Positions 6,966-26,061 of a DNA stretch of 64,000 nucleotides are shown here, in pieces. Position numbers and translations under genes: made by a program. Below the pieces are notes generated by a model. The model did not search any database. It had not been told where the DNA came from and saw only the letters and a program-made list of their open reading frames with translations. Source of the DNA: an uncultured virus (IMG/VR IMGVR_UViG_3300008259_004339) (taxonomy: Duplodnaviria; Heunggongvirae; Uroviricota; Caudoviricetes); IMG/VR virus record IMGVR_UViG_3300008259_004339, positions 1 to 64,000 of that record; one strand, 5' to 3'. How positions within the stretch are numbered: position 1 is the first letter of the stretch; the number at the start of each line of letters is the position of its first letter.

Positions 6966-7041
6966 TGGTGGGTCAAACCGGACTTGAACCGATAACCAAA
7001 GAATTATGAGTTCTACGCTCTAACCATTGAGCTATTGACCC
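6966..7041 (-). tRNA. tRNA with CAT anticodon, Ile2-type (lysidine) more likely than Met
   Basis: GGGTCAATAGCTCAATGGTTAGAGCGTAGAACT-CAT-AATTCTTTGGTTATCGGTTCAAGTCCGGTTTGACCCACCA; canonical cloverleaf resembling bacterial tRNA-Ile2. Confidence 0.9.
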
Positions 7042-7064
7042 GTAAATACTTTTACTTTAAAAAA

Positions 7065-7157
7065 TGGTGGCTCCGTAGGGAATTGAACCCTATCAGCACC
7101 CAAATCTAGGGATTATACAGATTATAAGTCTGCCCATGCACCATACATCACAGAGCC
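7065..7157 (-). tRNA. tRNA with TAT anticodon (Ile) and long variable arm
   Basis: GGCTCTG/CGGAGCC acceptor, GCAGA-CT-TAT-AA-TCTGT anticodon arm, 24-nt variable region, TAGGG-TTCAATT-CCCTA T arm, ACCA end. Confidence 0.85.
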
Positions 7158-7170
7158 ATTTTAAAAAAAC

Positions 7171-7243
7171 TGGAGCGGGTCCGAACTTTGCATTTCGCCT
7201 TCTGATCTGGTAGACCAGCGTGCCCTCTTTACACTTGACCCGC
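7171..7243 (-). tRNA. tRNA-Gly(ACC), atypical T arm
   Basis: GCGGGTC/GACCCGC acceptor with U73 (Gly identity), CTGGT-CT-ACC-AG-ATCAG anticodon arm, T loop TGCAAA, TCCA end. Confidence 0.75.
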
Positions 7244-7253
7244 ATTTAAATTC

Positions 7254-7540
7254 AAATAGGAAGGACTAATGATTACCTCCAAGTTTCACAATATGCACCG
7301 TTATTCATCCACAATCCATAAAGTTAATTACTCTCTATGTTAACGATTGATGGGATTGGTTTCCCACAACGACCTACGATATATCATTTATTTTAGCTAC
7401 GATGTCGTTACGCTTGAATTATAGGTTGTACGACCCACAATCCGCCATAGACTTACACTGCACATTATTACTCCAACCAATAATGATTCTTCACCACTAT
7501 TGTGCGTTACCCCTATACAAAGGTTGTTCCGCCACTATCT
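7254..7540 (-). ncRNA. Candidate ~287-nt highly structured ncRNA
   Basis: ORF-free spacer between tRNAs; closing stem AGATAG/CTATTT, nested helices CACAATA/TATTGTG and GGATTGTGGGT/ACCTATAATTC, several hairpins; boxA motif directly upstream. Confidence 0.65.
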
Positions 7541-7541
7541 T

Positions 7542-7557
7542 AAATTGTTAAAGAACT
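7542..7557 (-). promoter_or_regulatory. rrn-type boxA antitermination motif
   Basis: AGTTCTTTAACAATTT versus E. coli rrn boxA TGCTCTTTAACAATTT; recurs before several RNA genes. Confidence 0.65.
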
Positions 7558-7566
7558 ATCAAAAAA

Positions 7567-7642
7567 TGGTGCCTATGACTGGATTCGAACCAGTACTACC
7601 GAAATTTTAAGTTTCGTGACTCTGCCGTTGGTCTACATAGGC
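7567..7642 (-). tRNA. tRNA-Leu(TAA) with short variable loop
   Basis: GCCTATG/CATAGGC acceptor, CGAAA-CT-TAA-AA-TTTCG, 5-nt variable loop, TTCGAAT T loop, ACCA end. Confidence 0.9.
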
Positions 7643-7644
7643 AT

Positions 7645-7660
7645 AAATTGTTTAAAGAAC
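7645..7660 (-). promoter_or_regulatory. boxA-like motif
   Basis: GTTCTTTAAACAATTT between the promoter at 7680-7707 and tRNA-Leu(TAA). Confidence 0.6.
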
Positions 7661-7679
7661 CATCACTTACTACTCTTTT

Positions 7680-7707
7680 ATCTTACCACATCATCTTCTG
7701 ATGTCAA
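7680..7707 (-). promoter_or_regulatory. Sigma70-type promoter
   Basis: TTGACA-N16-TAAGAT with GTGG immediately before the -10. Confidence 0.75.
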
Positions 7708-7723
7708 CTGCTTTTTCAAAAAA

Positions 7724-7800
7724 TGGTAGCTAGGGTCAGATTCGAACTGACACTGTACACTTTTTGAGAGTGCTGCCTCCTGCCTTTGGGCTACCTAGCC
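7724..7800 (-). tRNA. tRNA-Leu(CAA) with short variable loop
   Basis: GGCTAGG/CCTAGCT acceptor, GCACT-CT-CAA-AA-AGTGT, 5-nt variable loop, GTCAG-TTCGAAT-CTGAC, ACCA end. Confidence 0.9.
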
Positions 7801-7809
7801 ATTTAAAAT

Positions 7810-7918
7810 TGTTCTTCCAATGGATTTGCACCATCATTTACGATATGGAAGAGTTACCGTTAGACTTTCACGAATAGTAGAGTCATTATTAATGTTTCTC
7901 TACGCACGATATAGTTCC
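7810..7918 (-). ncRNA. Candidate small RNA ending in a tRNA-like minihelix
   Basis: GTAGAG/CTCTAC hairpin, then TCTTCCA/TGGAAGA acceptor-like stem enclosing ATGG-TGCAAAT-CCAT T-arm-like hairpin, ending ACAA. Confidence 0.45.
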
Positions 7919-7924
7919 TAAATT

Positions 7925-8018
7925 TGGTGGTTCCGCCCGGATTCGAACCGAGACCGTGCTCAAATCTAGAGCTTATCAACGTTATAAGCGTTGCGTTCTA
8001 CCGTTAAACTACGGAACC
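7925..8018 (-). tRNA. tRNA with TAT anticodon (Ile) and long variable arm, second copy
   Basis: GGTTCCG/CGGAACC acceptor, CAACG-CT-TAT-AA-CGTTG, 24-nt variable region with GCTC-TAGATTT-GAGC hairpin, TTCGAAT T loop, ACCA end. Confidence 0.88.
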
Positions 8019-8024
8019 ACTAAA

Positions 8025-8101
8025 TGGTAGCGGGGGAGTGAATTGAACACTCTACCTTCCGGTTATGAGCCGGACGATCTATTCCGTTGATCTACCCCGC
8101 A
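8025..8101 (-). tRNA. Initiator-like tRNA-fMet(CAT)
   Basis: TGCGGGG/CCCCGCT with 1:72 mismatch, TCCGG-CT-CAT-AA-CCGGA, overall similarity to bacterial fMet tRNA, ACCA end. Confidence 0.85.
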
Positions 8102-8124
8102 AATTTTTAAAAGAACATCAAATC

Positions 8125-8767
8125 TTATATCTTAGCTTTGTCTCTATCTCTTTCATATCCTTTAACTTCAATAAAGACATTATCATAATCTAATAATTTA
8201 AAGTCTGGAAAATATCTGTGGTAAGATTCATTCCAATAATATTGGAAATTTTCTTCAATCTTATTTGACCATCTTATATTATTTTTGTTTAAATAATCTA
8301 TTACCAATAATTCCCATTTACCAAGACAACTAGTTTCATTACCTAAACTATCTATAGTCTTAATTGTTTTAACTCTACCACAAACATTTTTACTAGAATA
8401 AGATTCTGGATTATCATCCACTGCTTTCTTCATTTTCAATGAATGTTCCAACCTTTTTTCTTTAGTCCAAACTTTCTTCTGTACTTAACTTAAAGTTTCT
8501 ACCTCTATAAATAGCCGCACATTTATTGCCACAAAAATATACTTTTTTTCGTTTTCTTTTTTTAGAAAACAAAATTATCTGATTACATTCACAGCATTTT
8601 AATGGATTTTTTTCATAATCATCAATAGAGAGTATAGTCCTTGATTTTGCAAAACATTGCAAACTACAATATTTTCTATTTCTTTCTCTAGCTCTAGAAT
8701 TGTATTTTATTATAGAACTACAAACATTACATTTATTTGGATTTAACAAGTATTCTTCTTCTGTCAT
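8125..8767 (-). mobile_element. Homing-endonuclease-like gene (Cys-rich N-terminus plus PD-(D/E)XK nuclease), split by a frameshift near 8455-8475
   Basis: ORF 8462-8767 has CxxC/YCS/FCGNKC zinc motifs; ORF 8125-8451 has KWE...YFPDF...FIEVKG; the second frame reads through as KVWTKEKRLEHSLKMKK. Confidence 0.65.
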
Positions 8768-8842
8768 ATCTAATATATATTAGAGAGCCAAACAAGAATA
8801 CATTTTATTTACACAAAAGTTAAAATTTCAAGGAACAATAAA

Positions 8843-8914
8843 TGGTAGCTGGTATGAGTGCTGCCCTCATTAAAGATTCCGTATGAAAGAATCTTGCTTG
8901 CTGAAGCCCCAGCC
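8843..8914 (-). tRNA. Atypical tRNA-like gene, CAT anticodon, extended anticodon stem
   Basis: GGCTGG/CCAGCT acceptor, GCTT-CAGC-AAGC mini D arm, 8-bp AAGATTCT/GGAATCTT stem with TT-CAT-AC loop, ATGAG-GGCAGCA-CTCAT T arm, ACCA end. Confidence 0.65.
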
Positions 8915-8922
8915 ATTACAAA

Positions 8923-8997
8923 TGGTCGCTCGCCTAAGAATCTCACTTAGTTACCAATGGTTATGAGCCATCGTCAAATAATAACCTGCCGCCAGCT
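8923..8997 (-). tRNA. Atypical tRNA-like gene, CAT anticodon (degenerate fMet-like)
   Basis: AGCTGGC/GCGAGCG acceptor with mismatches, CAGGT-TATT-ATTTG D arm, GATGG-CT-CAT-AA-CCATT, CTAAG-TGAGATT-CTTAG, ACCA end. Confidence 0.6.
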
Positions 8998-9128
8998 GTT
9001 TAAATTGTTTATAAAGAACTATCCTAAAAATTATGTTGGGTGTATCTATTGAATACTCTATCCACCCAACAAACAGAGTATACCATGCGCTAACCCCGCA
9101 ACCAAGAAGTTTTCAACCAAACATCAAA

Positions 9129-9204
9129 TGGTAGAGCCACAGAGAATCGAACTCTGATCTATTCCGTGAAAGGGAATTATCCTAAACCGTTAGACGATGA
9201 CTCC
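9129..9204 (-). tRNA. tRNA-Glu(TTC)
   Basis: GGAGTCATCGTCTAACGGTTTAGGATAATTCCCT-TTC-ACGGAATAGATCAGAGTTCGATTCTCTGTGGCTCTACCA. Confidence 0.92.
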
Positions 9205-9212
9205 GTTAAATG

Positions 9213-9426
9213 AACTGGTAATATTCATTGAGTTACTTATCTACGTAAGCATCGCTGTGTAGCGGACATTTTTCAGCACAGCACACAGTTGTGTTTGGGT
9301 TAATCATTTAATATGTTTAATGATGAAAGTCAAATTCTACACGGAAAAAATGCTTTCGTAATCAATCACGATACTTAAAAGTGTAGTTGTCCCACAATAT
9401 ATGATTTACTTCGTTTATTACCAGTT
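9213..9426 (-). ncRNA. Candidate ~214-nt structured ncRNA
   Basis: Fills the Lys-Glu tRNA spacer; perfect 11-bp terminal stem AACTGGTAATA/TATTACCAGTT; inner helices CTACAC/GTGTAG, CATATATTGTG/CACAACTGTGTG, TCGTGAT/ATTACGA. Confidence 0.6.
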
Positions 9427-9430
9427 AAAA

Positions 9431-9507
9431 TGGTGGCCCCGGTGGGACTCGAACCCACGACCAAAAGCTTAAAAGGCTTCTGCTACTACCAACTGAGCTA
9501 CAAGGCC
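9431..9507 (-). tRNA. tRNA-Lys(TTT)
   Basis: GGCCTTGTAGCTCAGTTGGTAGTAGCAGAAGCCT-TTT-AAGCTTTTGGTCGTGGGTTCGAGTCCCACCGGGGCCACCA. Confidence 0.93.
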
Positions 9508-9743: not shown

Positions 9744-10469
9744 ATGACATTAGAAGATCAAAATAATAAATATAAAAATTGGTATTATCGTATAATACAT
9801 CATCGTTTAAACAATCCGGTTTTAAACCAATATACAGAAACACATCATATAATTCCAAAGTGTTTAGGTGGGTTAAATTGTTCATCGAATTTAGTTGAAC
9901 TGACTGCTAGAGAACATTATATATGTCACCTTTTATTAACTTCTGTATTTCCATCTTCTTCCGTAGAATATAAGAAAATGTGGAAAGCGTTTGCTTCAAT
10001 GGCTTGGTATAAAAGCGAAAATCAACTTAGAGAATACAAAATAAATAATAGAATTTATCAAAAATTAAAAATCGAATTCAGTAAAATTCAATCACAACAT
10101 CAATCCGGCACATCTAATAGTGGTTATGGAAAAAAATGGTATCACAATGTAGAATTAAAATTAAGCAATAAATTTTATCCAAACAAAGTTCCTAATGGAT
10201 GGGTTTCTGGTAGGGTTATTAACTGGGATAAGTATTTCCTTCCAAAATTCGATTCAAAAGAAACAGAATGTATTCGTTGTAAAAAAATATTTTTACCTAG
10301 AACTTCTGTTCACAAATACTGTACAACTACGTGTGCCGATAAACATCTTTATAATTCCGATACAAAGAAAATTATTATTGAAAAGAACGGTATTACTAAA
10401 TTGACCAAACGAGAAAATTTACATATGTATAAAAAATATGGATGGAATTTAATAGATAGGCTTTATTAA
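9744..10469 (+). mobile_element. HNH homing endonuclease
   Basis: YTETHHIIPKCLGG...NLVELTAREHYICHLLL; antisense insertion in the tRNA array. Confidence 0.88.
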
Positions 10470-10471
10470 AA

Positions 10472-10552
10472 TGGCGCTCCGGGAGGGACTTGAACCCCCA
10501 TTTTCATCCATTTATGCACTTAGGGCTTAGAAGACCCCGCCAGTACCGGAGC
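10472..10552 (-). tRNA. D-armless tRNA-Arg(TCT) with long variable region
   Basis: GCTCCGG/CCGGAGC acceptor, only TACTGGC in place of the D arm, GGGGT-CT-TCT-AA-GCCCT, 22-nt variable region, GGGGG-TTCAAGT-CCCTC, GCCA end. Confidence 0.75.
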
Positions 10553-10564
10553 ATTATGGTATAA

Positions 10565-10897
10565 TTACTTACCGTCGCCCAGTTCGTTACGAACAGCTTT
10601 ACCAAGTTCAGTTAGCTGAAACAGTGGTTCGCCATCTTCGTTGTGACCAGATACATATAATAGACCCTCTGCTACCATCTTGTCAACTGTTTCTTTAACT
10701 TCTGCCAAAGCAATTTCATTATAAATGACTTCAGCTTCAGCTTCATCACATTCAAGTTCTTTCATAATTACTTGAATACAGGCTTCTTTTTCTTCAGCTT
10801 TGACTTGTTCTTCTACTTTTGATGTATCTAGATTGGAACAATGATTTAGTAGATCGTCAATTGACCCGGTGAAATTATCGGTAATGTACTTGTTCAT
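10565..10897 (-). CDS. Hypothetical protein (acidic, possible winged-helix C-terminus)
   Basis: 110-aa ORF; C-terminal MVAEGLL...FQLTELGK. Confidence 0.7.
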   Translation of the reverse strand: MNKYITDNFTGSIDDLLNHCSNLDTSKVEEQVKAEEKEACIQVIMKELECDEAEAEVIYNEIALAEVKETVDKMVAEGLLYVSGHNEDGEPLFQLTELGKAVRNELGDGK

Positions 10898-10914
10898 TTT
10901 TATAAATAGTTGAA

Positions 10915-25736: not shown

Positions 25737-26061
25737 AAATAATTACTTGGTTAAATCCGCAAACTGGTCTATGACGATATCAATTGACGAAACTATATTT
25801 GATGATCCTCATATAGAAGCTTGTACACGATGCATTGAAGATAAAATTAAAACTTTAAAAGAAGACGATGACTTTTTAGTTAATCCTATAATGGTTGTTA
25901 AATCATTAAAAAGGAAAAATAGCAAAGAAAAAATAGTAAATACATACAAAGTACTTTTGAATGCATCATTTCCATTTAGAGCGGAAACTCTACGTAGAGT
26001 ATTTTACAATAGCACTGAAATAGATTTAGCTAAAGAACCAATATCATCATCTAAATACTAA
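25726..26061 (+). CDS. Hypothetical protein
   Basis: 111-aa ORF overlapping the helicase end. Confidence 0.65.
   Translation: MLNKNNYLVKSANWSMTISIDETIFDDPHIEACTRCIEDKIKTLKEDDDFLVNPIMVVKSLKRKNSKEKIVNTYKVLLNASFPFRAETLRRVFYNSTEIDLAKEPISSSKY

Follow-up and report, generated by a model that had tools for sequence, protein, structure and literature searches.

A phage tRNA-Arg(UCU) gene that appears to carry its D arm behind the anticodon arm

A gene resembling tRNA-Arg(UCU) and lacking a D arm lies on the minus strand at positions 10472–10552 of the 64-kb window (the whole stretch of 64,000 nucleotides analysed here). We asked how such an RNA could be built and whether it is likely to decode AGA. 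The DNA of the window, with a G+C content of about 32%, belongs to a T4-like phage. Among its genes are those for a family B DNA polymerase (phrog_262) and a clamp loader, together with many for sugar modification, and its closest cultured relative by polymerase is Microcystis phage Mel-JY01 (42% identity). Eight other tRNA genes, detected with ARAGORN/Rfam, are located on the minus strand at 6966–9507 (Met, two Ile-UAU, Leu-UAA, Leu-CAA, Met, Glu and Lys). Each of the nine tRNA genes in the window ends in an encoded CCA, with a T-rich stretch after it. Directly upstream of the tRNA-Arg gene is an ORF of 110 amino acids (10565–10897, minus strand), which is common to related contigs and was used as a synteny anchor. 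On the other side, a homing-endonuclease-like ORF (9744–10469, plus strand; phrog_655, E 3.9e-36) ends 2 nt from the tRNA 3' end.

The gene measures 81 nt including the encoded CCA and scored 96.8 bits with the covariance model R1. Read on the minus strand, it contains exactly the parts listed in the first-pass annotation, that is a perfect 7-bp acceptor stem, a TCT anticodon arm, a T arm, CCA, the heptamer TACTGGC and a 22-nt variable region. The acceptor 5' strand (10546–10552, RNA positions 1–7) pairs without mismatch over 7 bp with 10476–10482. It is followed by a 7-nt connector, UACUGGC (10539–10545, RNA 8–14), which has the form UA-N-UGGC in all 63 members of the main family described below and whose nucleotides 11–13 covary with the insertion. 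The anticodon arm (10522–10538) carries the loop CUUCUAA with the anticodon UCU at 10529–10531, and its stem has a G·U pair at each end in the window gene. Where a variable loop is expected, sequence reading and the Rfam alignment place an insertion of 22 nt (10500–10521). This begins after the anticodon stem with a linker of 4 nt, AAGU (10518–10521, RNA 32–35), of which RNA 34–35 are able to pair with connector C14 and G13. The next three nucleotides, GCA (10515–10517, RNA 36–38), form the putative strand of a D-stem in trans and pair with connector U11 and G12 (and G13). They are followed by the D-loop-like UAAAUGGA (10507–10514, RNA 39–46), a region where CAUAA-N-UGGA is invariant in the main family. 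The tail UGAAAAU (10500–10506) leads back to the T stem; across the family its length is 4–16 nt, and 61 of 62 members have AU at its end. The T arm (10483–10499) reads GGGGG/UUCAAGU/CCCUC, with 97.8% of cells paired over 63 relatives. The acceptor 3' strand (10476–10482), the discriminator G73 (10475) and CCA (10472–10474) complete the gene.

The Rfam tRNA model RF00005 scored the window gene at 31.4 bits, above the gathering threshold of 29, and aligned it with a 15-position deletion for the D arm and an insertion of the 22 nt. Scores of the relatives ranged from 27.5 to 31.4 bits, some of them below the gathering threshold. ARAGORN, run on the window, did not report the gene. A D hairpin was found in none of the 63 family members, which leaves them short of a four-armed cloverleaf. 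Together with the Rfam deletion, this bears out the first-pass annotation in its view that the D arm is missing. Folding of the single window sequence preferred a rod over a cloverleaf and was not better than for shuffled sequences (z -1.03). Promoter and terminator scans at the window tRNA remained at background level.

A D arm might also be lost by a deletion in assembly or sequencing. We found no point that supports this explanation, and we discard it for the following reasons. The identical 81 nt are present in other IMG/VR and metagenome contigs. Close variants of the gene differ at up to 5 positions and never in length, while their flanks diverge freely, and one of them has a compensated acceptor pair (C4-G69 to U4-A69). 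In Logan contigs from 14 DNA runs of 6 studies, all 69 sampled words of window positions 10200–10900 were present, and each run is a possible source of this DNA. The D-less layout was kept in all length variants found. Against the assembly deletion that read mapping had been proposed to exclude, the layout recurs in the Logan contigs, in independent assemblies and in the finished genomes of cultured phages. It is also conserved across 63 relatives, so that the loss of this architecture in homologs, named beforehand as an observation that would speak against the reading, was not seen. The raw reads of one DNA run contained nothing from the region and are uninformative for the tRNA. Three metatranscriptome libraries, from an estuary and an unnamed metagenome, had contigs only on the upstream ORF at 10640–10900, where DNA carry-over is possible.

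Relatives were collected by nine pattern scans of public collections (seven viral, one metagenome, one genome), and yields are given here for the six scans that brought new or divergent members. Two viral scans with a free anticodon returned 27 loci with 20 true members (7 false) and 35 loci with 20 true members (15 false). Two further viral scans, with the Arg-type anticodon loop fixed, gave 73 loci, all of them true members, and 36 loci with 22 true members (14 false). The metagenome scan found 18 loci with 7 true members (11 false). Searching 185,579 species genomes with a strict motif produced 5 loci, of which 1 was a true member and 4 were false. Apart from the window gene, the 63 distinct sequences of the resulting main family stem from IMG/VR, metagenome contigs and one MAG. 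Its members are diverse: among the 62 tabulated, the acceptor 5' strand occurs in 48 versions, the anticodon stem in 42 and the T stem in 30. A covariance model built from 16 members separated the members (77–97 bits) from ordinary tRNAs (26 bits at most). With this model, 19 sources were searched; one member was found in each of the 12 member-bearing sources. Three other contigs, known from the pattern scans, contain two members. A match in Aeromonas phage avDM12-TAAL (35.7 bits) proved to be an ordinary tRNA-Met and was rejected.

In the 63-row alignment 94.7% of the cells were paired, and 17 of the 19 pairs changed on both sides. As a control, shuffled alignments were scored, and 0 of 500 reached any of the measures; partners slid out of register paired in 36–50%. 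All seven pairs of the acceptor stem were changed on both sides among the 63 relatives (97.5% of cells paired), as were all five pairs of the anticodon stem. The acceptor, anticodon and T helices of a tRNA are each supported by covariation. Besides the connector, the core GCAUAA-N-UGGA is invariant in the main family. The encoded CCA is missing in 19 of 62 members.

Several contigs contained variations on this theme. Two rewired genes lie side by side or a few kb apart in L171, L174, L146/L147 and L168/L169, and the pairs parsed in L171, L146/L147 and L168/L169 each consist of one UCU and one CCU gene. Contig L071 (149,668 bases; the same in L133:5889-5977) carries a 12-nt tandem duplication of the acceptor 5' strand and the first connector bases, on account of which ARAGORN calls an 89-nt tRNA-Arg(UCU) with a makeshift D arm. 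In the IMG/VR contig L008, the acceptor and anticodon stems of a tRNA-Arg(UCU) are separated by just 14 nt, and its variable loop is short and normal; here the D arm may be reduced in a different way.

We then examined how the connector and the insertion are paired. The first-pass annotation had proposed a helix between TACT and AGTG and a CAT/ATG hairpin presenting the GG. The first of these was also predicted by RNAalifold on six near-identical variants, and it was dropped after the test on 63 relatives. There, only 75% of the cells were paired, without compensation: A9 faced U in 45 and C in 18 sequences, N10 was unpaired in 30, and U11 faced any base. The CAT/ATG hairpin is formable in only 11 of 62 members, and in most members the insertion forms no hairpin.

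The correct register came from the divergent subfamilies of cultured phages. The covarying helix joins connector nucleotides 11–13 with the three nucleotides directly 5' of UAA..GG. In the main family these strands are UGG and GCA, in the second gene of Streptomyces phage Mildred21 CCG and CGG, in the Felix O1 type CUC and GAG, in Streptomyces phage BoomerJR CGC and GCG, and in the third and fourth Mildred21 genes ACC and GGU. For the 11 sequences outside the main family, 33 of 33 cells paired in this register, compared with 22 of 33 at most in any of 14 shifted registers. In the 57-row alignment A4, pair 11-42 was UA in 46, CG in 9 and AU in 1, and pair 12-41 was GC in 47, UA in 7 and CG in 2, with two rows off by one column. 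Within the main family, including the window, the trans helix consists of two Watson-Crick pairs and a third pair G·G; in the window N10 is a C and stands opposite a U. The main family also allows alternatives with one G bulged, in which G13 pairs with the preceding U/C (63 of 63) and C14 with the preceding G (61 of 63). These extra pairs (G13-U35 and C14-G34 in the window) require G36 to bulge and show one-sided variation only. The proposed covariation check across homologs thus came out for a trans helix between the connector and the triplet before UAA, and against both pairings that had been named. The broader proposal, a rewired cloverleaf, was retained in altered form: the D-loop GG does lie in the variable-region insertion, whose start is indeed paired with the connector, and with the D hairpin absent these features amount to a rewired cloverleaf.

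The upper end of the anticodon stem is a point against this structure. In the standard register, pair 27-43 is unpaired in 26 and pair 28-42 in 16 of 63 sequences. Of the 16 sequences with A42 unpaired, 14 are rescued by pairing of 28 with 43, using four pair types. Of the 20 sequences with C at position 27, 19 have G as the second linker base, which no other sequence has; with 1.0 bit, these two columns have the highest mutual information of any column pair. The association of the linker G with C27 and the re-pairing of 28-43 support a trans helix that would run on into the anticodon stem. When mutual information was used to look for tertiary partners of connector N10, nothing emerged beyond a weak association with the base that follows UGGA, and this was not of the Watson-Crick type.

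On this basis the gene can be mapped onto canonical tRNA positions. The connector reads as U8 and A9, four nucleotides in place of 22–25 and one in place of 26. After the anticodon stem, 4–8 linker nucleotides would be followed by three or four in place of 10–13. In the window, UAAAUGGA reads as position 13, A14, A15, the spacers 16–17, G18, G19 and A20. Judged from these assignments, the gene looks like a canonical tRNA in which positions 10–21 now follow the anticodon arm. In the canonical L-shape, position 10 adjoins 44/45, position 22 adjoins U8/A21, and positions 20/21 lie near 48. Given these neighbours, the three new joins should be short, which is a deduction from the canonical fold and not from a computed model.

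The bacterial tRNA-Arg identity set consists of A20, C35, U/G36 and A/G73, with A20 as the strongest determinant for E. coli ArgRS (PMC9976931). An A directly follows the GG in 62 of 62 members, C35 and U or G at position 36 are likewise present in 62 of 62, and A/G at position 73 in 60 of 62. The window gene has UCU and G73, so that the nucleotides A20, C35, U36 and G73 recognised by bacterial ArgRS would all be kept, provided that the mapping is correct. In the two anticodon-free scans, 16 of 16 distinct members were of the Arg type (UCU, CCU, UCG). The anticodons among the 62 were UCU (41), CCU (16) and UCG (5), but the Arg bias of this large set is partly built in because two viral scans admitted only Arg-type anticodon loops. 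One relative of the Ile type, found in Mildred21, has a U after the GG. This GAU gene further has a G in place of 16 and a U-A pair in place of 12-23. G16, U20 and U12-A23 are bacterial Ile determinants (PMC9976931), and the features of the Ile-type gene thereby support the position mapping.

The gene also occupies the place of an arginine tRNA. In 16 related contigs the same 110-aa ORF is followed either by the rewired gene (9 contigs) or by a canonical tRNA-Arg(UCU) (7 contigs: L014, L019 and L020–L024). Thus, the rewired gene substitutes for the canonical AGA decoder in the same slot. The canonical tRNA-Arg that L023 has in this slot shares the 8-mer AAUUGGAU, part of its D loop, with the window insertion. 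A similar picture was obtained from larger tRNA sets. Among the roughly 44 tRNAs of one complete phage of 150 kb, Arg-CCU, -UCG and -GCG are ordinary genes, and the sole UCU species is the rewired gene. In a Chloroflexi MAG, an array of more than 28 tRNA genes contains ordinary Arg-CCG, -UCG, -GCG and -CCU genes and, between Arg-CCU and Trp, the rewired gene as the sole UCU species. In two other phages a rewired CCU gene is the only, or the second, Arg tRNA. The annotated tRNA-Arg of Felix O1 reads ACG, so the rewired gene is its only tRNA of the AGA/AGG type. In the window, AGA accounts for 204 of the 384 Arg codons in 33 ORFs, and the other tRNAs of the phage likewise match A/U-ending codons.

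A covariance model search identified main-family genes in four cultured phages. In Alishewanella phage Slicko01 the gene is annotated as tRNA-Ser and in Streptomyces phage Mildred21 as tRNA-OTHER, and in Streptomyces phage Comrade and Pseudomonas phage vB_PsaM_M1 it is unannotated. Weaker matches were three further genes of Mildred21 and a gene of Felix O1. The four rewired genes of Mildred21 (MF155946.1; 73703-73779, 86379-86453, 91367-91442 and 94857-94933) have GAU (Ile), UCU, UCG and ACG among their anticodons. Since GAU is included, the design is not limited to arginine. The Felix O1 gene (25951-26029) has no annotation of its own, an annotated HNH ORF covers part of it, and ARAGORN misses it. 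This type alone has matches in 263 cultured phage records, and its stems covary among the eight sequences compared. Carriers include Felixounaviruses of E. coli and Salmonella, phi92 and relatives, Vequintavirinae, the T5-like phages Sugarland and Kamaji, and jumbo Asteriusvirus phages. Among the 40 matches listed of the 263, most have no annotation at that place, and some are given as tRNA-OTHER or as an ORF. In 5,426 complete E. coli genomes the Felix O1-type gene had no match. Hosts of phages with the design include E. coli K-12, Streptomyces and Pseudomonas, which makes it directly testable. HNH endonuclease genes adjoin the rewired gene also in Sugarland, PHA46, Kamaji and Felix O1. Movement of the rewired gene between unrelated phages, and its exchange with canonical tRNA-Arg genes, may be due to homing.

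Of the two roles suggested in the first-pass annotation, a functional AGA decoder or a mimic that would escape host tRNases, the comparisons favour an ordinary AGA decoder with an unusual core. The gene probably encodes a functional AGA-reading tRNA-Arg with a transposed D arm and belongs to a large, unannotated phage family. In the mechanism we propose, the D arm would be split and not deleted. Its 3' strand would stay behind U8-A9 as the connector, and its 5' strand and the D loop (canonical 10–21) would be placed after the anticodon arm, instead of the variable loop. Connector and insertion would pair in trans and form a short D-stem stacked on the anticodon stem. The stretch A-A-N-U-G-G-A would reach the T loop, with G18 and G19 contacting psi55 and C56, and a tail of 4–9 nt that ends in AU would return the chain to the T stem. 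The host ArgRS would recognise A20, C35, U36 and G73 as in a normal bacterial tRNA-Arg, and the phage would carry the rewired tRNA because AGA is its main Arg codon. Transcription, processing, L-shape, charging and decoding of the RNA are predictions from sequence comparison. In more general terms, we lean towards a natural class of phage tRNAs with a permuted core and a trans D-stem that works with unmodified ArgRS (in one Streptomyces phage apparently IleRS), RNase P, EF-Tu and ribosomes. The restriction of the design to phages suggests that rewiring pays off during infection, for example by escape from a host enzyme that reads the D arm, and the neighbouring homing endonucleases may spread the gene.

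Other explanations have to be weighed against the transposed D arm. The RNA could be a tRNA-shaped decoy that does not decode and instead soaks up a host factor directed at tRNA-Arg, such as an anticodon nuclease or a modification or decay enzyme, or resists such a factor by virtue of its rewired D arm. A conserved anticodon loop and elbow would suit such a decoy as well. The design is also confined to phages and mobile tRNA arrays (1 true among 5 matches in the strict-motif scan of species genomes), and the absence of the Felix O1-type gene from the E. coli genomes fits an infection-specific role. Against a decoy, the rewired gene replaces a canonical tRNA-Arg(UCU) at the same site and supplies the UCU or CCU species that full phage tRNA sets would otherwise lack. 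It has also kept the acceptor stem, the discriminator, CCA and the ArgRS determinants, although a nuclease decoy could do without them, and we identified no defence gene or target. We therefore regard a decoy as unlikely.

To our knowledge, bacteria have no tRNA splicing endonuclease, which is relevant to a further alternative, the intron-like excision of the 22-nt insertion to yield a D-armless tRNA of about 57 nt similar to those of animal mitochondria. The position of the insertion between two helices and its treatment by Rfam would be in line with excision. Yet bulge-helix-bulge or group I features are not visible in the sequence, and the excised piece would contain the A20 needed for Arg identity. 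Moreover, the insertion is the most conserved part of the gene and pairs with the connector, and hence is structural. Excision is thus highly improbable. An intron in the anticodon loop or of the archaeal type was rejected by inspection, as the anticodon stem closes directly after the loop. Finally, endonuclease genes next to the rewired gene in the window and in Felix O1, Kamaji, PHA46 and Sugarland, and the failure of ARAGORN on the gene, might be taken to indicate a decaying pseudogene or a functionless by-product of homing-endonuclease traffic. Against this, every helix shows compensatory changes across 63 or more sequences, the core motifs are invariant while the flanks diverge, and one subfamily alone is present in 263 cultured phage records. 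This leaves the pseudogene with an almost negligible probability and the transposed D arm as the preferred reading.

Compared with a canonical tRNA-Arg(UCU), the rewired gene has the same anticodon loop, T arm, 7-bp acceptor stem, A/G73, CCA and genomic slot. The canonical tRNA forms a D hairpin, whereas in the rewired gene the D-stem strands flank the anticodon arm, and the variable loop has given way to the D-stem 5' strand, the D loop and a tail. In the D-armless tRNAs of animal mitochondria, the D-loop GG and the elbow contact are lost and adapted partners are needed. In contrast, the rewired tRNA would keep G18, G19 and A20 in a new place, its T arm and acceptor are canonical, and its hosts are bacteria with ordinary machinery. 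No loss of elbow nucleotides was seen: UGGA in the insertion and UUCRA in the T loop are kept in all members. Similarities exist to the animal mitochondrial D-armless tRNA-Ser(AGY/UCU), namely a short connector for the D hairpin (7 nt here), an extended anticodon helix and poor visibility to tRNA finders (PMC7609411).

Class II tRNAs and phage tRNAs with an extra variable arm, such as the tRNA-Ile(UAU) of the window, share the long stretch between anticodon and T arms. They have a normal D arm and a closed hairpin, whereas the rewired members have no D arm and could form a hairpin in only the few cases given above. Circularly permuted tRNA genes are found in the red alga Cyanidioschyzon, where processing restores a canonical mature tRNA. 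They resemble the rewired gene in that tRNA segments stand in a non-canonical order, but the latter has no evident processing route, and its mature RNA itself would be core-permuted. The engineered mini HisT, a D-armless tRNA accepted by E. coli HisRS, EF-Tu and the ribosome, shows that a bacterial synthetase, EF-Tu and ribosome are able to use a tRNA without a D hairpin (PMC11551756). Unlike the rewired gene it is artificial, the arm is simply missing, and a pnp mutation was needed against its decay (PMC11551756).

The relevant passages of a 2020 review of non-canonical tRNAs place D-armless forms in mitochondria only and leave phages unmentioned (PMC7609411), and a 2024 paper states that all known bacterial tRNAs are canonical cloverleaves (PMC11551756). 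In the full-text literature, apart from subscription journals, supplements and the early T5 and Felix O1 sequencing papers, we came across no account of such a tRNA in phages or bacteria. If our reading is true, bacterial translation would have its first tRNA architecture other than the cloverleaf, overlooked by annotation in Felix O1, phi92, T5-like and jumbo coliphages. A widespread, conserved tRNA with its D arm transposed would show that more than one strand topology can lead to the L-shape and that the backbone can take another course in presenting A20, the identity nucleotide, to ArgRS. Counts of phage tRNAs also come out too low, since ARAGORN overlooks the gene and the GenBank records are blank there, read tRNA-Ser or tRNA-OTHER, or have an ORF over it. 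As the missed genes are decoders of AGA and AGG, this bears on codon-usage arguments for the carriage of tRNAs by phages.

Some minor observations concern the surrounding tRNA genes. The two tRNA-Ile(UAU) genes of the window (7925-8018 and 7065-7157, both on the minus strand) are 92–94 nt long and combine a normal D arm with a variable-arm hairpin of about 21 nt. The same kind is present at L012:3066-3159, L074:149-240 and L135:2902-2994. The stem of its hairpin covaries (GCUC/GAGC, CCC/GGG), and AGAU is kept in the loop. Searches by blastn with the window locus and with this long-arm tRNA-Ile gave no match among cultured phages. In a related phage, a weak match to the wcaG RNA motif (L023:2379-2483; 31.7 bits, gathering 42) lies directly downstream of the tRNA cluster. 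Alishewanella phage Slicko01 has an annotated tRNA-Ile of 106 nt, and the long-arm tRNA-Ile(UAU) is found together with the rewired tRNA-Arg in several unrelated contigs.
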